DNA of 45,433 nucleotides, the filler included, from Jimgerdemannia flammicorona (Eukaryota), in the NCBI GenBank assembly GCA_003990765.1. It is 2 parts of 2 records of this genome, joined end to end, with 100 filler letters (N's around TTAATTAATTAA, not from the genome) between each part and the next. Parts side by side here need not be neighbours in the genome. Positions count along the whole stretch, not along the records: positions 22,769 to 45,433 come from RBNJ01001231.1; 1 more part is not named here. One strand, 5' to 3'. Shown piece after piece: positions 19,517-39,600 of the stretch. The position numbers and the translations under genes were made by a program. The notes under the pieces are model-generated. The model saw only the letters and a program-made list of their open reading frames with translations. It was not told the origin of the DNA and did not search any database. The first letter of the stretch is position 1; each line of letters begins with the position of its first letter.

Positions 19517-22032
19517 TCACCTTTCTCCTGTACAATTCGCGTTACACAAAAACTTCAAGCAACAGTTTTTGATACAACTAGGAGAAAAGATACTATCAAG
19601 ATGTCATTGAGCAAGAGTTCTGACGGGTGTACTGAGTTGGGGGGAGCTGGGGTTTTTGGCTAGCAGAAGGTGGGGAGGGGGTATGGTCTGGGGATGGGGG
19701 CCTTTGGAGGGTCGAAGGTGGGAGAAAGCTCTGGAGGTGGACCAGTATCTGGTGGATCTAGAGGAAGGTCTGGTCCCTCCAGCTTTGCCAACAAGGTGAA
19801 GGTGGGTGGATGGCCTACTGGAACAAGGGTTGGCACTGCTGAGGGGAAGGGCAAGGCTAGTGTCAGGAGGGGGAGTGGCCCTCAGAGGGGAGTGGTGAGC
19901 ATAGGGGCTGGTGGTACTATGGCTGGGGGTGTGACTGTTGATGGGAGTGTGATGGGGGATCAGGAAAAAAAAAGAGATGAGACGGCTGATGGCAGGGTGG
20001 GGCAGGAGTTCCCAATGCAGAAGGGGGACCTGGCCGATGGTGTAATAGAGCTGGTGGTGGCACCATTACTCAAGAAGTCGATCTCGGAGTTTGTAGTAAC
20101 TCTGTACTTCTGAGGCTTAGGGGTGATGGCAAGGATAGTCTTGGGGCTTATCTTGAAGCAGGTGGCTGAGGCAGCTTTGGTGAAATTCCTGAAGGGTCTG
20201 GAGGGAGTTGAGGTGGGCTTTAAGGAGGTGGGCCCACTGGAAGAGGTGCTGAGGGTGGGAGTGGCAGTTGGAGAGGTGGTGGTCCTCATGGTACGCTGTT
20301 TGAGGTGGGACCCCAGGGTGGTGCAGCTGCTGGTGAAGGGGGTGCCCACAGTGATGAAGGAGGAGACAAGGAGGAGAGTAGAGGAGGTGATGGCAGAGTA
20401 TGGAAATGTAGTGGATATTGGCTTCCAGGTGTGGGAGGGGATGATGATTAGGACTAGCGATGTTGATGTCAGGATTCGGCTGGCAGGGAGGGAGGCCACA
20501 GGGAAGGCAGGTGACTGGCCCTCAGTATTGATGTGGGGGGCCTTTATTTGTAAGGTGTCGAGGGTGAAGGGGAGTGAGGAGGAGGAGGAGGATTTGTTGG
20601 AGGTATTGGAGGAGATGAGTGGTGTGGTGGAATGGTGGGCAAAGGCCTGGAAGCTCTATGAGGAGTCAATGCACTTGGAGATTATAGAGGGAAAGTATAT
20701 CTGCACTGACAAGAGGCAGTGGGAGTGGGCCCAGGGGTGCTTGAGGCAGAGGGAGCTCTTGGCGAGTATGATAGGAGGGGAGAAGAAGAAGGTTGATGGG
20801 ACTGAAGGGTCTGGAGGTGTCAAAGTCAGTATATGGGCTAGCGAAGGCAGAAAGGAGGCAGTGGTGACAGAAGAATGGGCTGCGAAGGTGCTGAGCAGGG
20901 ATCCCTATGCAGATGGTACTTTCGAGGTCTGGGAGGAGGAGTCAGATAGTACCCCCCCCCCCACTTATCAGGAGGGGCCCGGTGGGGTAAAGAGGGGCAG
21001 CGGAAGATGTACCAATGCAGGGGGCCCAGTAGGTTACCTTTGGGGTCCCAGATGTGGTGAAAGGGGGCCAGGTGGTGGCTGTTGGTAAAGACGAGCTGGT
21101 GGATGTCCCAGAAGAGGAGTGGAATGAGGATGCCAGTGTAGGTGTGGATACTACAATGCTGGATGCAGAGTGGCCAGAGACCCCTGGAGGGAAGGAGATT
21201 GGGAATCTGCTGTGGATGAGCAAGGTGATAGATAATCTTACAGCTGAGATATTGGGGGAAGTGGATCTGAGGGTCATGCTGGAGGAGCACTGGGCACAGA
21301 TTCTGCGAGGTGAGGGAGTGGTGGAGGTGCTGAAGATGGAGATTCTTATGATACTACTGGAGGAAGAGGGTTATGAGGTGGATGAGGTGAGGAAGGTAGA
21401 GCTGGTGGTTGTTGTGGGTGAGCAGGCAGCCTATTATTGGGCAGAATGCCATGGTTTGTAGTTCTGGTAGGAGGCCTGTGGGAAGTATCGGGAGGACTTT
21501 GAGGAGAAAGAGGATGGGGCAATGGTTGAACTTCTGGAGGGATTGGAGGCACAGGGAGCTGAGAAGAAGGAACTGGCTGCAGAATATGTCTTGGATTTGG
21601 CACAGGAGGACTTAAGTGTGGATTTGTAGAGAAGAGATTTAATCTTTAACAATATTCCTCATGAACAGTACAACTAACATTTTCTCTCTCAATGTGAATG
21701 GTCTTCGAGGATCTGGGTGGCATAAGAACATTTTTACATGGCTAAAGGGATTGGAGGCTGATCTCTTTTTACTGCAGGATGTACAGTGTGAGGATGAGGA
21801 TGATCAGGTCGAATGGACTAGGAAATGGGGTGGGGCTACCGCTTGGTTTGGAAAGGTGGTAATTCTGATAAAGAAGGGTAGAGGAGATTTGGAGGAGATC
21901 AAGAACTGGGGAGATCAATTGGTCTGGTGTGAGTGGCACCAGTCAGGGTGGAAATCAGTGAGGGTGGGCTCGTATTACTGCCCGGCAGCTAGGGGAGAGA
22001 GGATTGCGTGGATTAAGGAGCTACTACTGGAC
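19517..22032 (+). mobile_element. L1/Tx1-like LINE 5' half: ORF1 (19601-21630, disrupted) and start of the ORF2 APE endonuclease (21661-)
   Basis: MNSTTNIFSLNVNGLR...ADLFLLQD is the AP-endonuclease N-terminus. Colinear with the minus-strand copy at about 37260-39650; ends abruptly near 22032. Confidence 0.9.
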
Positions 22033-22668
22033 GGTCTCCACCTATGGCAAGCGCTCTATTGCTTCCCAGGATTGACATGTACTGAAAAGATAAGACAGTA
22101 GTATGTAAAAGCAAGATCAGTGAAACTGTGGACGTAATCGGCAAGGTTTTCTAGGACACTGGCGTCAAAATAGCGCATGTAGTTCAGTGAGTAGTGTTTT
22201 TTTATGATACCCACATCACCGACAAGACATTTATTTGACGCAGAATGTTCAGGAAATGGATCATTGTGATTGTGCGGCGACTCTACACCGAATACCACTT
22301 TTTCAACGACGTGCTTGACGCGCTATCCTTTCTTTACAACTCTCATATGATCTTTCACTACCTCTAGGAGTTTGATATTCACCAAGGCTTCTAAAGCTTA
22401 CTCTTCCAACTCCGCGCATATCTTCATCTGCATCTCCACCAGAGCCCGGTCTCAGAGAGAATCTATCGACCGTGGTTACTAGCAATTTTAGTTTTGGAGA
22501 ACTACTCAGGGTGCGGACAGACGAGAGGAACAGAGACGTCAAATCCCTGGAGGGGGTGGGGCCCTTAGGGTGGTCGCTGTCGGCATCTGGTGGAAGGGAT
22601 TTTGTAAGAAGAGTGGTGGGCAGGTTGCAGTGGTTAACGGTATGGTTGTCTTTGAGAGGGTGGGGGTG

Positions 22669-22768
22669 NNNNNNNNNNNNNNNNNNNNNNNNNNNNNNNN
22701 NNNNNNNNNNNNTTAATTAATTAANNNNNNNNNNNNNNNNNNNNNNNNNNNNNNNNNNNNNNNNNNNN
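22669..22768. other. artificial contig-joining spacer (N44-TTAATTAATTAA-N44)
   Basis: Exactly 100 bp with a six-frame stop linker in the centre. Confidence 0.97.
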
Positions 22769-22794
22769 TCGGTGGGCAGGTTGGTGGGCAGGTT

Positions 22795-23143
22795 GGCGGA
22801 GGGAGCGCGCAAAATTTGCGGCCCTCCGCCGGTAGCAAGGGGCAGCCCCAAGCCACAAGTGTCTGGGTCGGGGGGGGAGGCGGAGGGAGCGCGCAAAATT
22901 TGCGGCCCTCCGCCAGCAGCGAGGGGCAGCCCCAAGCTGTCAGCGCCCGGGTCAGTGGGTGGGGTCGGTTGGCGGGCGGGGCAGGCGGAGGGAGCATGCA
23001 AAATTTGTGGCCCTCCACCAGCGGTGTAGGGGCAGCCCCAAGCCGCCAAGGAGTCCAGGGCAGAGGGTGCTTCTGGCAGTCGGAGGGTGCTTCTGGCGGT
23101 CGGAGGGTGCTTCTGGCGGTCGGAGGGCGTTTCCGGCGGTCGA
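22795..23143. repeat. GC-rich array: three hairpin-containing ~60-bp units with variable spacers, then a 21-bp repeat x4
   Basis: GGCGGAGGG-AGCGCGCAAAATTTGCGG-CCCTCCGCC at 22795, 22879 and 22984; (GGAGGGTGCTTCTGGCGGTC)-type units at 23062-23143. Confidence 0.9.
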
Positions 23144-23322
23144 AGTCGCCGGTTCGGGTCCCATGGGCCAAGGGGCCGGTAGGGCCCTGCATAACGGCTA
23201 AGCTAGTACTACATAAGAGGCGCCCGGCCCAACCCCCCTATATAAGACTGCCTAACCCGCACAAAATGGCTGCCTAACCCTCACGAAAGATTGCCTAACC
23301 CTCATGAAAGATTGCCTAACCC

Positions 23323-25300
23323 TCACAGAAACTGCTCCACCCACCGGTCCCAGGCCTTGATGAGCCTGTCATCCATTGTGAGTGTGACGACTATTGTGTC
23401 CGAGCTCTCCTCGAAGGCGACGGTGCCGTAGTGGTCGTGTGGTTGGAATAGGATGGCCGTGTTGGCTGCAAACGGGACCCCGAAACTGTAGGTGAGGTCA
23501 TACCAGACTCCGCCGCTGTCCTCCCAGGTTGGGCCCTTCCTTTCCGGGACGTAAAACATTACCGGGGTGATGTTGTTGTCTGTGTGTGTGGGCAGAGAAA
23601 GGTTGCGCCCAACATATCCTGATGTGACACGAGTGTACGGTTGGGTGAACCCTTGGCCCAGGACCTTATACTGCCAGGCTGTGCTAGTGGATGCCTGCCC
23701 TTGGTCCAGCCCCGGGAGCCCCAGCTTGGAAACCTGCCAAAATGGATAGCAACTGGTCAGTCCTTTTTGTGTTCGGGGGGCAGAAACCCCCCGGGCTGCA
23801 GAAACCCCCCGGGCTGCAGCACCCCGAAAGAGTGGAGCTCCTCACCTCATACGGCACACTAAATTGTGCCAAGAATGTACGTACAGCCGTGCTGAGGTCA
23901 CCACCAAGCTGGCCTGCCATACGCTCTACCAATCTGCTCAAAGAACCCCAGATCATCGCCGCCATCGCCACACAGGCCGTGTCGTGCTCGCGTGCAGTTT
24001 GCTCTTCGACGGCACTTCTAAAGTTCCGGTAGGGGTATAGAATCTTGTGCATCCCTAGAATTATATCAAAAAGAGTATGTCGGTGAAGAGTGTGATTTAT
24101 CTGGGGAGGGGTTAAAAAAAAAGGGAGATGAGTGTGGGGGATTTCGGAACCCACCCTTCGCCAGTATTGCAGTATACCCAATTCCCATCCAAACCCTCCC
24201 TCCTTGCTTTTTTTACCCCCTCTTCCCTGCCACCTGGTATTTGATGCAATCCTCGCAAATCTCATTGATGTGGTGGTGAAGCTCGTCGCCGTAGAGATTC
24301 CTTACCACCATCGCAACCACCTCTCCGCATTCGTTAATAAAGATATGGTTCTCTTCGTCATTGGTTACTCCTGCTGGTCAATGGACCCCTTGGTCGAGTA
24401 TGATTGGCTCTGATTCAAATGTAGACCCCCAAGCCTTGATGACGATGCTGGTACTACTCATGCTGAACATCTTGCCCTCAAATTTCTCTATTTGATCAGA
24501 CGCCAGACTTGGTTGAACTCGGATAACTTTGAACTCTCCTTTCCACTAGAACTGAGCCCTGATCTGAGGGACCGAGATAAGTATACAGACGGGTTGCATG
24601 TGGGTGGGTTGCATGCGGGCGGGTTGTGGGTGGTATGCGGGCGGGTTGCGTGCGGGCGGGCAGGTTGCGTGCGGATGGGTTGCGTGCGGGTTGCATGCGG
24701 GTGTGGGTGTTTTTTAGGGGGAGACTATGTAAAAATGAAATTAAATAAAACACGGAGATGGGTATTTCAGAAAAAGAGCACGAGTGAGTGAGCTGCATGC
24801 CGATGAGTTGCATGCCGACGAGTTGCACGCCGACGAGTTGCACAAGTTGCACAAGAATTGCTCATGAAGGCTTGCTTCTGTTCCTTTTGAGACCTCCGCC
24901 ACACGATGCATTGACTCAACAGCTCAGCCACCAAAGGCATGCCCCACAACGTCCGCCAGCCTTTCTTCATCTTGACCAGATGTTGCGAATAAAGTCAGCA
25001 GATCTCGCCATAGAGCTGTGGACCCTGAGAAAAGCATGAGGTGAATTGGGTCATGCTGGGGAAGTTTAAATAAATAAACATAAGTAAACAAGTGGTGGCC
25101 GAGTGAGCAACCTACATCTACTATCGGCTGCTCCAAAAAGGCTGCCGCGTACATAGCTGTGAGGTCTGTGAATTCTGAGGTCTGAAGGGCCACCATGAGT
25201 TGTTGCCGGAATTCTCCCTCATCCCCGCCATCGCCATCGCCACCGCCACCACCACCGCCGTCACCCCTTTGGCTCTCGATGAGCAGCTTGTGTGCTGTCT
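23323..25300 (-). pseudogene. TET/JBP-family 2OG-Fe(II) dioxygenase, multi-exon, with premature stops
   Basis: Phase-0 exons 24563-24234, 24100-23846 and 23733-23323 splice in frame: HIFINECGEVVAMVVRN...GMHKILYPYRN...NLSLPTHTDNN (HxD 23578-23586)...GGVWYDLTYSFGV...ILFQPHDHYGT...RLIKAW. Stops at 24546-48 (TAG), 24378-80 (TGA) and 24995-97 (TGA). Upstream exons are less certain. Confidence 0.72.
24590..24855. repeat. intronic short tandem repeats (GGGTTGCGTGC-type and 15-bp GAGTTGCATGCCGAC-type)
   Basis: Directly visible. Confidence 0.8.
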
Positions 25301-25574
25301 ATATGAGAAAGAATCTAACATTGTCAGCAGAGAGTGCATTTCCACCTTGAATACTCCCTCTTTTGACGATCATTGCAGAGTGAAAAATGAGTAGACTGGA
25401 CCAACGTACGAATTTAGGGCTGCTGTTTTGTTTGCTCGTAATGCGGCAGGAAAGAACAAAGAAAAAGAACAAAGAAAAGAGAGGGAACAAAGGAAAGGGT
25501 GATGTCACCAAAGTGCGGCAGGAAAAAAAAATAAGAGCGAAATGAACAAAAGAAGGGGTGATGTCACCAAAGAT

Positions 25575-25771
25575 TTCAATCCAAATGGATCAATCCGGAT
25601 GGGTCAATCCGGATGGGTCAATCCGGATGGATCAATCCAGATGGATCAATCTGGATCAATCCAGATCAATCCGGATCAGATCACGAGACCAATCCGAGTT
25701 GATTCGAATCCATCACATGACAAATCTGAATCAAATCTCATCCGGATCAACTCCATTCGTTCGGAGCACTA
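25575..25771. mobile_element. DNA-transposon end: GGATCAATCC/ATCCGGAT subterminal repeats ending in TIR ...TTCGGAGCACTA
   Basis: The terminus is the reverse complement of TAGTGCTCC, resembling the MITE ends at 29487, 29702, 30103 and 30327. It sits exactly at the break in the dUTPase frame. Confidence 0.75.
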
Positions 25772-26120
25772 GTTGTAGGATCAGAAAGATCAACATTTGT
25801 GCCAATCAGTCCTTCTTCTTGACTGGAAATGGGATTGTAGAATTGTGATTCCTAGCAATGAGTAGAATTTCTCCAGTATAGTCTGAATCGATAACTCCTC
25901 CTTCGATTGTGATTTCGCTTCTAGCCAGGTTGCTTCTTGTCTTGAGAATCCTGACATGATCCTTTGGGATAGTCATCTCCAGTCCAGTTGCGAGTAGGGT
26001 GGTTGTCTGGGGTTCCAGTACAGTCTCTTCTACTGTAGTGATGTCCATTCCGGCTGCATTTTCTGACTTATATTCTGGCAAGACTGCATCAGGGTGGATC
26101 TTTTGAATCTTGACCTTGAT
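25772..26120 (-). pseudogene. dut: retroelement-borne dUTPase domain
   Basis: Trimeric dUTPase motifs 1-4 are recognisable. The motif-4 Arg is TGA, and motif 5 is cut off by the insertion ending at 25771. Confidence 0.9.
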
Positions 26121-28569
26121 TTCTTCTTCATCATCACTGTCCTCCAGGAGGGCTGGTGGTTCATCATCTTCCTCCTTCTCTTCTTCCCTGATCTGTTTTT
26201 TGAGAGCTTTCTGCCTTCTTTCCTGGTGGTTCTTCTTGATTCTGATAGTACACTGGTAACAATCATTGATATACTCTATATAGTACATCTTGATCCCATG
26301 AGGACAGATTCCTTGTGGGACATAACCTTCTGTGATCTTCTTGTACCATTCTTCTTTACTTATCTATCCAACTTTCTTCTTCTTTGGAGTAGTCACCATA
26401 TAAGCTTCCTCTTGCTTGCTCTCTTCTTCCTCTATGTTAGGCAGGACTCCTTTATTGACATTGATGGGAATTCATATCTTCTATCTCCGGTAGGTGATCT
26501 GCATCTTCTGGGCATTGAGATCAATTACTGCTTTGGCTTTGTGAAGCCATTGATTGCTGATGAGGATGTCATAGTTAGTGGCATTGATTACAATTACATC
26601 TACTGAGATGGTTGCTCCTCCAATCTTGATGGGAATATCTTGGATCTTTCCCAGAGGTGTGGCTCTTGTGCCATTGGCTGTGATGAATACCAGCTTAGTT
26701 GCTTCTTCTACATTCCAACCTAGGCAGTCCGCTGCCTTCTTGCTGAGGAGACATCCTCCTGCTCCCGTATTAATGATGGCTTTAAAGATTCTATCTTCAA
26801 TTTGGCATATTGCATAAGCAGAGGTTTTGCAATTGTCCTCACTTTCTTCTCCTGAGTCCTCTTGAACATTATTGGTCTCAGTTATCTTCCATCCTTATTC
26901 CTTAGTTGTTTCGGCAAGTCCAAACCTCATTTGCTGTCTAAATGTTAGGATTTCTGTGAGCTGACCAAAGGTTGCATTGATCTTTTATTGACTAAGGTCC
27001 TTAAAGATATCATACTTGAAGGTCTTGGTCTTGTGAAGCTTCTTTTCTTTTTCTCTTTTACTGGCTAGAGTGGTTCCTTGGATAATATCTTGAACTGCTT
27101 GTTCCAGCTTCATATCTTGGTCCATCTCTTCAGCTTGGCTTTTGGTGGCCGTTTCCATCTGCTTTTCTACTGGGTTCTTCTTGGGTCTTCCTGGTGGTCT
27201 TTTGTAGAGTTCCTTGTGAACATCCTTCTTAGTAGTCTGAGCAGGATAAGCCTCCCATTCTTCTTCATCAGAATCTCCAATTTCCTTGAAGGTAATTGTA
27301 TTGGCCTGCTCCTTGTTTCATATAGCATTGCTTGATTGAGCCTTATACTTGGTTTTACTCATACATTCATAGGAGTAGTGGCCTTCTTCTCTGCAAGTAT
27401 AGTAAGTGCCTTTCTTCTTGTCTGAGGTGGTGGCAAACTTCTGGACAGGGTGGCAGTCTCTTCCTCGAATTTTCTTTACTACATCTCCCAGGTGGGCAGT
27501 CATTTCGGCAAACCTTTTGGCGAGTTCCTCCATAGGGTCACTGTTCTTTTGCTGCTCTGTAGCTTTTGGCTGAGGTATGTTTCGATTGATCATTGTGGTA
27601 GGGATCATACTAATTACCTTGAGTGCTTCGATTTTGACTCCCATGACCCTTTCCATTGTATGGTCTTATGGATGTCTGGCTATCCAGTATCACTGAGCAT
27701 AGGTGACCTTCTGTGGCAGATCCAGAATTACTGGTGATGAACAGATGGCCATGGCTATTTCTGGGTGGACTCCTTTCATGAAAATTGCTTTGGCTACTTG
27801 ATATCAGATAGCAGCAGCATAATCTACAAGGATTATCTGATATCGAATTCTGGTATAGATGTGTTTAGATCCTTGCTCATTCCTTGGTATGTTGTATTGA
27901 GCTGATCCTTCAGGGCTTGTTTGATCTCGTCTGTATAATATGTATTTCAGAGCCAGGTCTTCTGTGCTATCAGTATAGCATTGTCATCATTTTCTGCATG
28001 AGTTGTGGCTGTGAATACTACTCTGGCAGGACCTTGTAGGCTGAAGAGCATGAGGGCTACTTGCTGTACTGCTGTCAGGGTCCTTACAGTGGCATACTGC
28101 TCAAAATCATCAATGAAGGTAATGATTAATTCATCTGAGGTATATGTATCTATAGAATACTGGTGGTCTCATATCTATCTTATCTGGGTATTGGGGCTTG
28201 GTTTGTATGGTTGTTTGGATAGTAGCAGTTGTTCGTTATTCAGCTTGAAAGTGAGGGATTCATCTTGAATCACCAGCCAATGGCACCAAGTTGTAATGTA
28301 GTGGATGCTTACTCTTGAAAGTACATTAGATTTCTGTATCTTAAAAACTGACTGTTCTGACTCTTGCAGAGTCTCTTGAAGTTGCAGGAGAGGGTGGGTG
28401 AGTTCGAAGTGTATCTGCCCACAGGCTTACTAGTTCCTTTGCTATCTCTTTGCTTTGAACTATTTCTATCTGAGGTTTATTTACTCGAAGATACTGGGTT
28501 ATTTATACAAGTTTTGCTAGCTATGAGATGGTTACTGGGTTACATGGCTAAGTTATGAGTCATTTAACA
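25772..28569 (-). mobile_element. Ty3/Gypsy-like LTR retrotransposon 5' part: LTR, PBS, gag, protease, dUTPase (degenerate)
   Basis: TG...CA LTR at 28292-28569 and PBS TGGTGCCATTGG. Gag includes FIDDFEQYA...LQGPA and the knuckle YYTCREEGHYSYEC; protease is IINTGAG; dUTPase is AAGMDI...KTRSNLA...GGVIDSDYTGEI...KD*LAQML. Confidence 0.9.
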
Positions 28570-29486: not shown

Positions 29487-30327
29487 TAGTACTCTTAATA
29501 AATTAAATTGAATTAAATATGACCTAAATTCAATTTGATTTAATTTGATCAAATTAAGGTCTAATTTGATTTGATTCAAATTAAATTAAATACTAATTCA
29601 ATTCAAAATTTAATTTGAATCCTATTTTTTGAAATAATAACTCAACAAACATATATCTAAATTTAATAGTCTTTAGCTTATTAGATTCTCCTATATATAG
29701 TTAGTGCTCTCAATAAATCAAATTGAATTGAGGTCTAATTCAATTTAATTTGAATCAAATCAAGGTCCAATTCAATTTGATTTAAATTTCAATTTGAACC
29801 TAAATTTTTAAAATTCAATAACTTGATGGAAAAATGTCCAAATTTAATAATATTTATTATACTGGATTTGCCTTATTAAAGCGAATCTAACAAGCTAAAA
29901 TTCATCAAATTTGGATATATTTTCATCAAGTTATTATATTTCAAAGTTTGACTTTCAATTTCAAATTAAATCAGACCTCAATTCAATTCAAACTCAATTC
30001 AATTGGAATCCAATTTGAATTGAAAAATTCTCAATTTGATTTGATTCAAATCACTCTCAATTTAATTCAATTCAAATTGATTCAATTCATTTTGGGAGTA
30101 CTATATAGTAAATCTAATAAGCTAAAGAATATTAAATTTAGATATATTTTTATTGAGTTATTATATTTCTAAAAATAAGAGTTGAATTAGACTCTTGATT
30201 TAATTTGAATTTTATTTAATTCAAAATTTATTTGAATTAAAAATCTCTAATTCAATTTTATTCAAATAATTCTCAATTCAATTTAATTCAATTCAAATTG
30301 ATTTATATAATTTATTTAGGAGTACTA
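29487..30327. mobile_element. palindromic hAT-like MITE (outer), 8-bp TSD CTTGTAAT
   Basis: Ends TAGTACTC...GAGTACTA. CTTGTAAT occurs at 29479-29486 and 30328-30335. The arms are long imperfect inverted repeats. Confidence 0.9.
29702..30103. mobile_element. second palindromic MITE of the same family nested at the centre of the first
   Basis: Ends TAGTGCTC...GAGTACTA, internal palindrome centred near 29875, imperfect flanking duplication TATAGT. Confidence 0.85.
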
Positions 30328-33600: not shown

Positions 33601-36600
33601 AACCTGCTGCCCCAAAGCCCAAGAAGAAGTATACTCTGAAGACCATATCCAGAGACATCTACAATGAAGTCTGGTAAAAGATTCAAGAAGCCAAGATAGA
33701 AGTTCTGCAGTTTCTGTAACTAATACTAGCTGGAGTCTGAAAACAATTTGCTGAGAACCACCAGGTCTAGCACTGGCCAAGTTCCAATCCTATAGCAAGA
33801 GCCAGCTCCCACCCCTATCTAAGCTACAGAGAGATATGTCAGTACCTACCTATATAGAGATATTGGAGAACAAAAGGTGAAAATCCTTATAGATATAGGA
33901 GCAGCTATTTTTTTTTTTTTTTTTTTTTTTTTTCTTTTTTTTATAGTCACTCAGACTTTTATTTATTATCACTCAATCTATAAATAATACAACATATGTA
34001 CTCACAATCTCTCAGCCAATGCCTCTCAGATCCCTCTCCCTACTTGCCATCTCTCCCCACCAAAGGACAACCTAGCCACCTATCACCTGAACCCTCCCTC
34101 CACTTTTCTTACAAATACAATTCACCAGATTCTGACAGCCCCCCCCACCTGGTCCCCACCCTCTCCACCAACCATTCAAAATATCTAGTATTAGCTATTC
34201 TCAATGTGCTACCCTAGCTTCAATCACAACCTACTAGCTCTCCTCAAAGACATAAAGCCAATGACTGACCATCTTTACCCAAATTACCAGGGCCCATTCT
34301 AAGGTCAATCATTCATCTCCCACTCCACCCACTAACCTTTGTCAGAGGTCTCCCCATTTCTCTTCTTCCCTTCCCACTAGGGGTTACAATTCTAGCCTAC
34401 TAGAAATACTGTACCAAAACTCCTCCAAAACTTCACACTCCTCTAGCCAATATTCAGACATCTGTACCACTCCCCCCTCCTGGTCAATATTCATACATTT
34501 CTCACACTCAAATATGCCATCTGCCACCAAGTGCTCTGACTGATAGTTCAGCATCACATTTCACCTTAGAAACCTCTACTATACCACTCAGAACTTGGGG
34601 GGAAGTCAACATATCACCCACTTGCTCTAAGGCCAAATACCATTCCAATCTCACTCCTCACCAATCCCAACTCTCTGCCACACTTCAGGCCACATATCAC
34701 TCCCAAGCTCTCTCATATATTTCATTCTATCACTAAGCTAAAAGTTCTCCGCCAATGTATCTTCCAGTAATAGCTGGTTCTATCTCCACATCTATGGTCC
34801 CCAGTCCTCCTCCCCCTCATCACCCCTCTACCAAAGTCCAATTCTCCTTATACTATCCACCACTCCCTACCAAAAGTCTTTGTAATACATTCTCTTGCTC
34901 CCATCTATGGCCACCATTACAAACAGGTCACCAGTTGCTCCATAAGGAGAATAACAGACTTCCCACACTCTCTACATAAGTGGCACCCACTCTCAGCCTC
35001 TCAACTCACTCACTCTCTTCAGCCACCATACTCTCAGGTAGTATAGACACTTGGTAAAATCCACTAAACCCAATCAACCTCTGTTAACAGGCAGGGTCAG
35101 GACCTCCCAGCCTATCTGACTTCACTACCTGGCCCAAATCCATGATCTTGCCATCTTCAGAAGATACCCAACTACCCATACTAGAAAGTTCAGATAATAC
35201 CCTACATACTATAGCTTTGGTAGCCAATATATATTTAGCACTATCACCCTTCTTATTAAGGATAGATACTGACCACCCCACCTTAAAAAGTATTCTTCTA
35301 TACTAATAGTTGCTATTCCCACTATATATGGGGCAAAAGAGATCCATATACTGAGAAGTATATCCCCAAGTACCAGACCAGTTCTTCTGCTGGAACTACT
35401 GTTCCAATCACATTGCTACTAACAATTCCACCACTTAGCACCAGAGTCTCACACTTGTGCCAGTTGAGTCAAGCACCTGAGCCCCTCTCATATCATTCCA
35501 CAGTCCTCCTTAATTCCTCTATATCTACTAAAGAACTCAGTCCAACCACTATATTATCCACAAAAGCTTCAACCTTCCAGTTAATCTCCAAAATGTCCAA
35601 ACCTCTAATTTGGTGCTGAATCCTGTCTAATAGAAGCTTCAAGAAAAGGGTATATAGGATGGGTATCAAAGGATCCCCTTGTAGCATCTTACAACCCAGT
35701 GAAAAAGTCACACCTGCTTGACTGTTCTCCAATAGACTAATTAATGACCTTCTGAATACTGGGGAGACTCTCATATATTTCAGCACTCCTTCTAGCCAAG
35801 TCCTCCTCACTCTGTCATATGTCTTCTCCTGATCTAGAAATACTAACTAATCATCAACCCCAGCTGCCTGAGCCCCTTCAATCACTCCATAAACCCAGGC
35901 AGTCTTATCTCAGATCAACTGACTCCCAACAAATCTCCTCTGCTCTACTCCTAGTACCTGCTGAGCTATTCTCTGCAACTTAGTCACCAAGATCTTTATC
36001 ACTAGCTTGTAGTCTATATCAAGGAGTATGATCAGTTGCCAGTTCTTCCAATCTTCTCTTTTTCTCTTATTCTTATAGAGCAAGGAGACCAGCCCTAGAT
36101 GCTGGCCTCCAATCTAAGTTCCAAACTAAAGAACCTCACTATACATCACTGTTATCTCCTCTAATACTATCTCTACCCCAACCATTTTCTTCCAAAAATC
36201 CCAGAGAAGTCCATCCTCTCCTGGAGCTGTCCTCTTACTTATTGAAGCCAAGATCTTGCATACTTCCTCCCCCTGCACCAGATCTTCCAGCATCTCCAGG
36301 CCCAGTGCTGGGTCTGGATACCAATCCTCTAACTGATGTTCAATGTTCAGGGCATCCTCACCCCCTTCTGCTTTACTCTATAAATTTCCCCACAAGCTCT
36401 CAGCAATTCCAAAATCTTAGGGGTCCCCACCACCATCTCTCCATTCTCATCTAATATACCATCTCACTGCTATCTGGTCCTCCAAGCTTGGAGCAACTGT
36501 AAAAGGAATCTAGTGGGCCTCTCTCTCTCCTCCAACCTCTGCCACTACAGTCTTGCCACCACTCTCTTCAGCTGAATCTCTTCCTCCATCCATAGTACCT

Positions 36601-39600
36601 TCTTCAGCTCATCTACTTCCTTTTGTATCTATAGAATTTGCCAGTTAGCTGCCCTCCAATCCTCCAGCAATCCTGCCTATCTCCCCAGAAGTATTGCCAA
36701 TCTCTGTGAAGCTCATTGCACTCACCACCACCACTGAGCACTCCTTCCTTTCTCTGCCTCCCTCCAATACCGCCAGCAATCCCCAATTACCAATTCCTAC
36801 TCTTACCACTTACTAATCTTTTCAACAATTTCCACCTCTCAGTCTATCTATAAGGAATCATTCTCTAACAAAGAAGAATTCAGTCACCAATATCCAGGCC
36901 CATCCCCACTTCCCCCAAATCTCCCACTATCTATCAGACCTCAGTGATCCAACCACAGACACCAAATCACCTCTAACATGTCCCAGACATCCACTCCCCA
37001 ATACTCTGCCATTAACACTCAGTTGATCCTAGAGTCCAGCCCTGCAATCCAGTGGGTATAAATTTGGTGATCCACCCAGTACTGTCACCCTGAGTCAACC
37101 AAGGAGCTCACTCTCTCAACCTCCATCCAATCATCCAATCTGCCACTTCTATCTCTCATTCCTCTCCCTCCATCAGTCCTGTCTATTCCATTATCATGCA
37201 CTATGTTAAAATCACCCTCCAGATAGTCAATTCCTGCCTCACCCATAACCCCAGTCTCTCTCAGATCTCTAATCCAATCTACATATTCCCCCCTCTCAGC
37301 TAGGCAATAACATGACCCAATAGTCAAAGGGTTCTATCCAGGCCTTTTTCATACTCTCCACACTAATCTACTCCCCCAATGTCCAATATTCCCAATGTCC
37401 CCCATCTCCTTTTGAATCAGAATATCCACCTACCCAGTCCACACAGCTGCCCCACCCCATTTGCTAGTTCAATTCTATAAGTCTACATCCACCTCATACC
37501 ATACATCCTGCAGTAAGAAGAGATCTGCATCCAGTCCCCTCAGTCAGCCAAAGATGTTCCTTCACTATACTGCTCTCCTCAACCCATTCATATTCAAAGA
37601 AAATATTCTAGTTGTACTATTCATATTGAAAAATGTTAGATATTGAAAGCCCAGTCTAGAATTCCATACTCATCTTGTCATCAGCCAGATCTATATACTG
37701 CTCTGCCTCCAACTCATCCTCTGCTACAGCCTGAGCATCTAGTGCTTTCAAGATTTCCTGATACTCTACTCTGTCCACAATCACCATTTCCACCTGATAA
37801 TCTATACATACTACTCTCCACTTCTCCACCCTCTTCCTCAAGCCTTACAAGTATACCATCCAGTCATTTGCAATCCCCCTAAGGGCCTTCTCCCTCTGAT
37901 TGTCAACTTGATATTTCTTAGACTCCAAGAGCACTACCAGGATCTCATTTCTAATCTTTCTCAGCACCTCCTCCCCATGAAGGATTTCCTCCCAATATCT
38001 ATCACTTAGTACCTAAAAGTTCTCTCCCCCTAGCTCCTTAGCTACCACTCCCTCCAGAGTCTTCCACAGCCACTTCTCTTCATCCACCACCTTGGCAACA
38101 CTCTGAGTGACTCCTTCCACCCTTACCACAGGGTCCACCAAAGTGCTCCTCCTCTCTGACTCATCTCACTCCTCTTTTAGTACATCTAGTAGTTCTTTCT
38201 CTCCCCCTGCCCCACTTGGGACATCATACTGAGGATATACTTCCTCCCCCATTTCTGCATCCTCTACTATACCACTCTGTCCCTCCTCTCTCAATTCACC
38301 CTGGACTGAATCCTGAGCCACCTGGTGCTCCCTAGCCCAGATGCTCTCCCTCAGTCCAGCACCACCTTCTCCCACTCTGCTACCTGCCACACTCTCTCCC
38401 AGCTTCTCTAATAACTCCTTCTGGATTCGCCTCCCCTGCACCTTCTCCCAGGCCACCTTGTCTATCCTGATCCACTTTCTATCCATAATCTCCACCACTG
38501 TCTTGACTTCATACTCCTTCTAAGTCAGTCTCCTTCTCTCAACTGCTTCTGCCAGATCCTCAAGAGCCTCCAGCAAGTCCTTCTCTCCTTTGGCATCCCT
38601 TTCACCCATGAGACCTTGCACTCAACTGGATCCTACTTAAGAATTGTAGGCCAGTCCCTCATCTTCCCTATATTCTCTCTTCTAGCCAGTCTCACCCTGA
38701 CATCAACATCTCCTGTCCAGAGTTCAGTACTCTCTCAGACTCTGAACCTGATATCTATGATCTTCCCATACTCCTTGACCACCTCCACAATCAGCTCCCT
38801 AGCTCTCTCTCTTGATACTATAGGAAAATCCAGCACTGTCAGCTATACTACTCAGGGGTCCCAGTGTATACACCTGGTCATAGAAACCACTACTCTGCCC
38901 CCTTCTTCATGGCCTTCAACAATGATACCTCTTCCTCAAATCTAACCTTAACTCCTTCTTTCCCCTTCAAGAACTTCACCAAAGCTGCCCCCTTCACTTC
39001 CTGTACCACCAACTCCAAAATTATCCTTATAGTTACTGCCAAGTCTTGGAAGCACAATGTAATAGTGAATTCTGACCTCAACTTCTTGAGTAATGGTGCC
39101 AACACTATGCCCATCATGCCATCCATCAGGTCCCTGGGCCTCATGCCCTCTCTCTGTCATAATCTACCAACAACTGTCACATCTGGATTTTTTTTCCAGA
39201 TCCCCAGTCACAGCTCTATTAGCGGTCACATCTCTAGCCCTGACTACTCTCCCCCCTCCATACTGCCTGACCCTCCCATGGGGGCCCCTTCCTGTCCCCC
39301 AACTGTAGCCTTTGGTGTCTTCCCCAGCCCCAACCAACTATCCAGACCTGCTGCCATTCTCCCCATCTTGATCTTATCAGCAAAGGTTATCCTCTTCTCT
39401 TCTTGATTCCTCAATCTACCCCTCTCCCCACTACCAATACTGTAACCAACCATAGAAGGCTCTGGCATCCCCAAACCATCTCTCTGTCTCCTTTCAACAT
39501 ACTGCCAGTCAAAGGCACTGCTGTTCCTTTGGCCAATATGCTCACTAGTACAGTTATTGCTATCTATATTGTTAGTCTCCTTTTACCAAAAATATTACAG

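Follow-up and report, generated by a model that had tools for sequence, protein, structure and literature searches.

What did the damaged gene near the start of the second record of this window once encode, what carried it, and how was it lost? The window is the whole stretch of DNA that was analysed, 45,433 nucleotides of Jimgerdemannia flammicorona (assembly GCA_003990765.1). It consists of two separate records joined by a spacer at 22669-22768 (44 N's, TTAATTAATTAA, and again 44 N's), the second record (RBNJ01001231.1) starting at 22769. The gene spans 23323-24940 on the minus strand of the second record. Because the window is stitched from two records, the sequence left of 22669 is not the physical context of the gene. 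Transposon-borne TET/JBP enzymes are thought to help mobile elements evade methylation-based silencing, and a preliminary description, made from the sequence alone, had proposed that the locus is a transposon-borne gene of this kind in a heavily methylating host, disabled by C-to-T changes.

The locus is probably a pseudogene of a TET/JBP-superfamily Fe(II)/2-oxoglutarate dioxygenase, which resides on a repeated element that has retained its CpG dinucleotides, and which was lost through C>T/G>A transitions. The gene would be one of a small clade whose members are co-linear with the fungal PE-type transposon-encoded TET/JBP enzymes but keep an HxD instead of an HxE motif. Its carrier would be a highly repeated, CpG-retaining element adjoining a broken long terminal repeat (LTR) retroelement. 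In the intact relatives, iron would be held by the His and Asp of the HxD motif together with a distal His, and 5-methylcytosine in DNA would most likely be oxidised. The inactivation would be part of a strong transition bias that extends over all of the copy, and such a bias fits deamination of cytosine, of either a 5-methylcytosine-linked or a repeat-induced point mutation (RIP)-like type.

Gene structure and disabling lesions

Two sets of sequences were used for comparison. Relatives were collected with phmmer, using the 136 amino acids of the last exon (exon 3) against 1.84 billion representative proteins, with a profile search, and with a metagenome scan that yielded two loci (L001 and L002) out of 185 pattern matches. 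Other copies of the element were taken from the contigs of four soil-metagenome runs (X1 to X4) aligned to 22769-26200 at 80% identity or more; the differences, joints, and loose ends described here are those among the rows listed from this comparison.

Judged by homology, the coding part of the gene comes in four segments (24940-24866, 24563-24155, 24054-23846, and 23733-23326, minus strand), which add up to 1101 nucleotides or 367 codons in phase, compared with 374 amino acids in the full-length relative P0003. There is no frameshift, and internal stops are found at codons 31, 87, and 142. The splice sites were set from the alignments to P0003 and L001. The parts of the gene are:

24866-24940, minus strand: exon 0, 25 codons from the start codon on (MPLVAELL...KQAF), whose LL..W..Q..K..F pattern looks by eye like the N-terminal ends of P0003 and the L001 upstream exon
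24564-24865, minus strand: intron 0, 302 nucleotides (ATGAGC...CCTCAG), donor AT instead of GT, acceptor AG; matched by an intron of L001 at this position
24155-24563, minus strand: exon 1, a single frame with three in-frame stops, supported by tblastn with P0003 residues 92-167 and by the gene model
24546-24548, minus strand: in-frame TAG, codon 31, between 'RAQF' and 'KGEF', by eye like P0003 'RTQF...SDF'
24378-24380, minus strand: in-frame TGA, codon 87, from TGG (Trp) according to other copies
24213-24215, minus strand: in-frame TAA, codon 142, from CAA (Gln) according to other copies
24055-24154, minus strand: intron 1, 100 nucleotides, GT..AG, phase 1, at the place of the L001 intron after 'ASG'
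23846-24054, minus strand: exon 2 (GMHKILYPYRNF...SVPYE), open, supported by tblastn with P0003 residues 167-240
23734-23845, minus strand: intron 2, 112 nucleotides, GT..AG, at the same place in L001
23323-23733, minus strand: exon 3, 136 codons and TGA, the putative catalytic core, supported by phmmer and tblastn
23578-23586, minus strand: HTD, the putative iron-binding HxD motif, its His invariant in all seven rows of alignment A1
23500-23514, minus strand: GGVWY, the GG-aromatic strand; one Gly and the Tyr are invariant in A1, P0002 and P0004 having Ser for the other Gly
23422-23439, minus strand: HDHYGT within ILFQPHDHYGT, from the gene model
23428-23430, minus strand: TAC (Tyr) replacing the distal iron-binding His (CAC), from relatives and other copies
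23365-23367, minus strand: Arg in DDRLIKAW, candidate 2-oxoglutarate-binding Arg, from the alignment

The preliminary description had three exons splicing in phase between 23323 and 25300. The in-phase splicing holds, but the coding segments are four, and the region 24941-25300 has no homology to any relative in tblastn searches. With P0003 as query, tblastn finds three co-linear pieces in the window (24377-24153, 24055-23807, and 23730-23341; combined E 2.7e-31). The first of them (P0003 residues 92-167) passes across the in-frame TAA. Residues 1-91 of P0003, which cover exon 0 and the region of the TAG, have no tblastn match in the window, and two upstream pieces, 'IRAQF*WKGEFKVIRV' and 'MPLVAELLSQCIVWRRSQKEQKQAF', look by eye like the N-termini of P0003 and L001. 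The L001 introns are at the same three places as those of the window gene. Intron 0 contains two tandem-repeat arrays of units of about 15 nucleotides (24590-24701 and 24790-24842), the first of which is partly skipped or re-joined in some other copies (joints 24626/24689 and 24627/24590).

The motifs on which the preliminary description was built are real: HTD, GGVWY, and ILFQPHDHYGT all lie in one stop-to-stop frame at 23323-23841 on the minus strand, and the best phmmer match of exon 3 (E 1.2e-69) is far beyond chance. The Arg downstream of the distal His, a candidate for the 2-oxoglutarate-binding residue of the TET/JBP family, aligns in the window, P0001, P0002, P0003, P0008, and P0010, and not in P0004/L001 or P0009.

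One lesion concerns the putative distal iron ligand. All seven distinct relatives (P0001, P0002, P0003, P0004/L001, P0008, P0009, and P0010) have the distal His in the pattern xH[GA][ST], and the window has Tyr (alignments A1 and A3). At 23430 the other copies have G, giving CAC (His), in 107.1 of 115.2 depth from 11 contigs of X1. The earlier proposal that TAC stands for a former CAC is thus borne out. Its account of the stops fared less well. TGA and TAG are present, but the third stop is TAA, and at 24378 the other copies have C, reading TGG, in all of the 464.5 depth (26 contigs) of X1 and in all depth of X2 and X3. The TGA was therefore derived from Trp by G>A (C>T on the opposite strand) and not from CGA. 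For the TAA, other copies have G at 24215, giving CAA, in 71.1 of 78.3 depth of X1 and in all depth of X2 to X4; protein relatives have Lys at this site (tblastn). Because the other copies read CAC, TGG, and CAA, all three lesions that can be polarised (His>Tyr, TGG>TGA, and CAA>TAA) are C>T or G>A transitions. The donor of intron 0, which reads AT instead of GT at 24865, is possibly a further G>A lesion. Given three premature stops in exon 1, a Tyr as distal ligand, and the AT donor, the window copy cannot make the enzyme.

Relatives and family assignment

The phmmer search with exon 3 gave eight matches at E ≤0.001. Those retained are P0001 (E 1.2e-69, 83% identity), P0002 (E 3.1e-34), the full-length P0003 (E 2.4e-15), P0004 (E 1.1e-10), and P0008 (E 4.5e-4). 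P0010, a hypothetical protein of Paramarasmius with 485 amino acids, was added by the profile search. The repetitive P0005, matched in five stretches, was judged to be unrelated, and P0006 and P0007, matched in seven and six short stretches, were set aside; all three were kept out of the alignments. Longer relatives of exon 3 were absent from the 87 candidates of a word-index search. The metagenome loci L001 and L002 are on AT-rich contigs (34% GC) from two different metagenomes and carry a related gene whose introns lie at the same places.

BLASTP aligns P0003 and P0010 co-linearly over about 340 residues (E 6e-9), and a profile comparison of the window clade (alignment A4) with P0010 and P0008 (A5) gives a probability of 96.4% and E 1.2e-9 over 253 columns in hhalign. 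The two groups differ at the putative iron-binding motif: HxD is present in the window, P0001, P0002, P0003, P0009, and L001, whereas HxE is found only in P0008 (HTE) and P0010 (HNE). P0010 and P0008 in turn share the strings SAGSRS, GGHFY, GIYRMD, and AIVTS with PE-type rows in the available text of Table S1 of PMC12730594, where SAGSRS occurs seven and GGHFY three times. Judged from these strings and from comparison by eye with that text, P0010 and P0008 look plainly like members of the same family as the PE type. The window itself shares a strand with a PE entry from a Tuber Helitron in the same table ('GEIVAMV.RN' compared with 'GEVVAMVVRN' in the window).

Structural comparisons point in the same direction for P0010. 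Its Atlas model (predicted template modelling score 0.72) has a Tet_JBP cluster as first structural neighbour, with a template modelling (TM) score of 0.48 by query and 0.69 by hit over 265 aligned residues, a match that 'meets the bar for a name', and it is followed by other Tet_JBP clusters and a PF20515 cluster. An Atlas feature search with exon 3 of the window also leads to a PF20515 cluster, at 0.91. A Foldseek search with a low-confidence AlphaFold2 model of P0010 gave CcTet, NgTet1, and CMD1 as top matches (E 4.4e-4 to 3e-3), a weak lead given TM scores of only 0.2-0.35. Taken together, the gene appears to be a member of the TET/JBP superfamily that is near the PE type, and would be placed outside PE as defined because it has HxD and not HxE.

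Mutation spectrum and CpG content

The transition bias is not restricted to the disabling lesions. At 31 of the 40 best-supported differences the window has T or A where other copies have C or G. These 31 sites are in CpG (12), CpA (12), CpC (6), and CpT (1) contexts, which corresponds to about 3.7%, 2.3%, 1.1%, and 0.24% of the available sites, respectively. Among the places listed for X1 there are at least 305 transitions and at least 17 transversions, a ratio of about 18:1. An independent second pair is provided by L001 and L002, which are 99% identical: in-frame stops interrupt L002, and C/G>T/A changes make up 15 of its 23 mismatches. As a mutation class, the disabling by C-to-T changes that had been proposed is supported.

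CpG content is bimodal along the window, as the ratio of observed to expected CpG (O/E) shows:

1.5-18 kb, most of the first record: CpG O/E about 1.0
22.5-25.5 kb, the element bearing the TET-like gene: CpG O/E 0.64-0.70, 144 CpG
27.0-28.5 kb, a piece of the retroelement: CpG O/E 0.17
30-42 kb: CpG O/E 0.00-0.04, with 0-1 CpG per 1.5 kb

This distribution would fit repeat-targeted CpG methylation followed by deamination, and the near absence of CpG from 30-42 kb lends indirect support to the heavily methylating host of the preliminary description. The private divergence of the window copy looks alike on both sides of the junction between the element and the retroelement (with about 32 rows listed for 3 kb and 8 for 0.4 kb). 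Because of this similarity the CpG contrast is a property of the families and not of the age of the copies. The retention of CpG by the element family may reflect a recent arrival, and self-protection fits as well. The mutations may be linked to the very methylation that the enzyme might counter.

The repeated element and its surroundings

The gene resides on a sequence that is present in very many copies. Contigs of X1 cover all 30 bins over 22769-26200 in 1219 pieces, of which 127 are at least 99% identical to the window, 416 are 95-99%, 483 are 90-95%, and 193 are less than 90% identical. The element has a sharp right edge at 25785/25786, where the neighbouring sequence switches family: elsewhere, copies of the retroelement are continued left of 25786 by other sequence, as a loose end in X1 shows, and both record 16 of X2 and record 24 of X3 begin at 25786. 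The second terminus of the element is invisible because the record starts at 22769. What had been described as transposon-borne is highly repeated and has a sharp edge on the right, but a transposase has not come to light; the gene is likely to be transposon-borne. The features of the element and of the adjoining retroelement are:

22769-25785: visible part of the repeated element carrying the gene, left end lost at the record start, from X1 depth
22795-23331: tandem repeats downstream of the gene, with an 84-nucleotide unit (a short palindrome by eye) and 20- and 21-nucleotide units
25576-25696: subterminal tandem repeats of 14- and 10-nucleotide units, about 90 nucleotides inside the right edge
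25786-27665, minus strand: truncated piece of an LTR retroelement, ending where the reverse transcriptase (RT) should follow (Pfam)
27321-27665, minus strand: zinc knuckle (zf-CCHC, 0.0025; Pfam)
26484-26894, minus strand: protease (RVP_2, 6.4e-10; Pfam)
25809-26363, minus strand: dUTPase (1.1e-15), after the protease (Pfam)

Upstream of the gene, at 25184-25298, there is a Gly/Asp-rich stretch of GCC repeats with a spike in depth in X2 to X4, which comes from unrelated GC-rich contigs of other organisms. The spike is a low-complexity artefact and no sign of conservation.

Elsewhere in the window, two regions show a strong strand asymmetry, with a GC skew of about -0.5 at 34-39.5 kb (34000-39500) and about +0.49 at 20-22 kb (19900-21900). 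They share repeats that are 66-69% identical and in opposite orientation, and contain an RT domain (35496-35846, minus strand) and an endonuclease domain (21643-22101, plus strand), respectively. Both regions probably belong to one non-LTR retroelement family with depletion of C on one strand. At 29500-29990 there are dense AT-rich inverted repeats with arms of up to 94 nucleotides that are 72-92% complementary, at 22-24% GC.

Alternative explanations

Several observations weigh against the interpretation as a transposon-borne TET/JBP pseudogene killed by deamination. In hmmscan searches of Pfam, including PF12851 (Tet_JBP) and PF20515 (2OG-FeII_Oxy_6), there is no match for the exons of the window, P0001-P0004, and P0008 at E ≤1, or for P0009 and P0010 at E ≤10, so that the check with the Tet_JBP hidden Markov model suggested in the preliminary description was negative for the window and its relatives alike. 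Sequence searches of the PDB gave no match, with the exception of a single row at E 0.87 that is due to chance. Because of these two negative results, membership in TET/JBP rests on a chain that leads from the window to P0003, from there to P0010 and P0008, and from these to the PE type and the Tet_JBP structures. The resemblance to TET/JBP is therefore supported indirectly. The structure search, which had also been suggested, gave a divided answer. P0010 is nearest to Tet_JBP clusters and CcTet, but in the Foldseek search with the model of P0003, the closer relative, the chains of the HIF prolyl hydroxylase PHD2 come first (E 3.6e-3), CMD1 has rank 32, and none of the matches reaches E ≤1e-3. 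Since this model ranks PHD2 above CMD1, the fold evidence for the window clade is for a 2-oxoglutarate oxygenase and not specifically for TET. Both AlphaFold2 models are too poor for geometry, with a predicted local distance difference test score (pLDDT) of 38.2 for P0003 and 41.4 for P0010. Even for the PE type itself, section 3.2.3 of PMC12730594 gives only E 1.4 for the HHpred match to CMD1. The gene could accordingly be the remnant of a non-TET 2-oxoglutarate-Fe(II) dioxygenase, prolyl-hydroxylase-like or a small-molecule oxygenase, that resembles TET merely through the shared double-stranded beta-helix fold. We give this a small chance, because the PHD2 ranking comes from a model with a pLDDT of only 38, whereas the co-linear P0010 has Tet_JBP clusters as nearest structures and CcTet, NgTet1, and CMD1 as its top PDB matches, and has motif strings in common with published PE-type proteins, as far as the text of Table S1 extends.

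As to the carrier, no transposase domain was found by Pfam in any of the open reading frames (ORFs) scanned, no terminal inverted repeat (TIR) or target-site duplication (TSD) is seen in the visible 3 kb, and an inverted-repeat search found no terminal pair across the two sides of the element. The flanks of L001 and L002 contain no transposase-like ORF by eye, and the right terminus has, again by eye, no convincing match to the termini given in the available text of PMC12730594 (TAYGG, CAC, CATCA, TGT, CA..TG, and TC..CTRR). These absences would suit a multi-copy host gene family or a segmental repeat, which is nevertheless improbable as the source of the gene. The very many diverged copies in all identity classes of X1, the sharp junction inside a retroelement together with the subterminal tandem repeats, and the published relatives, which are described as transposon cargo in sections 3.1-3.4 of PMC12730594, all argue for a mobile carrier. 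With respect to the cause of death, all three of the polarised disabling lesions lie outside CpG, in CpA, CpA, and CpC contexts, so that a link of the mutations with the methylation that the enzyme might counter is conjectural, and the spectrum as a whole is drawn from a small number of sites (31). Ordinary neutral decay, instead of a genome defence based on deamination, could account for such lesions, but there is little to recommend it in view of the 18:1 excess of transitions, the ranking of the per-site rates from CpG down to CpT, and the loss of nearly all CpG from the flanking repeats. Finally, exons 2 and 3 are intact, and the stops could be imagined to lie in unrecognised introns or to be assembly errors in a gene that is still functional. 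This is hardly conceivable, since the alignment of P0003 continues through the TAA and since, in other copies, two of the stop sites have a sense codon and the Tyr site has His. The pseudogene of a transposon-borne TET/JBP enzyme thus remains the preferred explanation.

Comparison with known systems

With this locus the TET/JBP enzymes gain a divergent HxD clade, undetected by standard domain models, and a clean example of the death of such a gene, by nonsense mutations and loss of an iron ligand through transitions, which is an expected fate for such genes. A CpG-retaining element amid CpG-free repeats also offers a measurable contrast for the question whether TET cargo slows methylation-linked decay. 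Going further, the window clade could be a fourth, undescribed type of mobile-element TET/JBP, PE-like, with HxD, invisible to Pfam, and with only few relatives in 1.84 billion representative proteins, whose enzyme protects the CpGs of its carrier (O/E about 0.65, 144 CpG in 3 kb) from methylation-driven decay in a compartment whose other repeats are almost free of CpG (0-1 per 1.5 kb). We regard this proposal as doubtful. Both the association of TET/JBP genes with transposons and the C>T hypermutation have already been discussed by Kojima 2025 (PMC12730594), and section 4.2 of that paper notes that the function of transposon-encoded TET/JBP enzymes lacks experimental validation.

Among enzymes of solved structure, the P0010 model gave as top Foldseek matches the AG-type CcTet (Coprinopsis cinerea; PDB 7VPN, 8JKK, and 7W5P), NgTet1 (4LT5), and CMD1 (7CY4-8). 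These would have the logic of a metal triad of two His and one carboxylate in common with the window clade, but there is no detectable sequence similarity, and the TM scores of 0.2-0.35 come from a poor model. The PU-type of rust fungi, which is found on seven DNA-transposon lineages according to PMC12730594, is similar in that its TET/JBP genes are linked to transposons and reside in genomes whose repeats show C>T hypermutation. However, the PU motifs in the text of Table S1 (GG.MW..GWRK, FFN.PH.D..D, and HCT), compared by eye, are different. The hypermutation of fungal repeats by RIP-like processes or 5-methylcytosine deamination has the strong C>T/G>A bias and the loss of CpG in repeats in common with the window, but the contexts of the 31 sites are mixed here and do not clearly follow either the CpA rule of Neurospora or the TCG rule of rusts (both as given in PMC12730594, section 4.2).

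The PE-type (Kojima 2025, PMC12730594) is the closest system. HxE is stated there as the PE hallmark (section 3.4), whereas the window clade has HxD, no carrier transposon is seen, and the window copy is dead. The window-clade motif strings PTHTD, PTHVD, HTDNN, and YGFGV are absent from the Table S1 text, which is weak evidence because its cells are readable to 400 characters only. The similarities with the PE entries available are in the architecture: the co-linear N-terminal 'GE[IV]VAMV.RN' strand, 'G....G[YW][ST]', the H-x-acid motif, GG.[FW]Y, HG[TS], and the Arg follow each other in the same order, and the window element is also multi-copy and repeat-associated. The kind of gene is thus already described, and the locus is a new and dead representative of a divergent clade.

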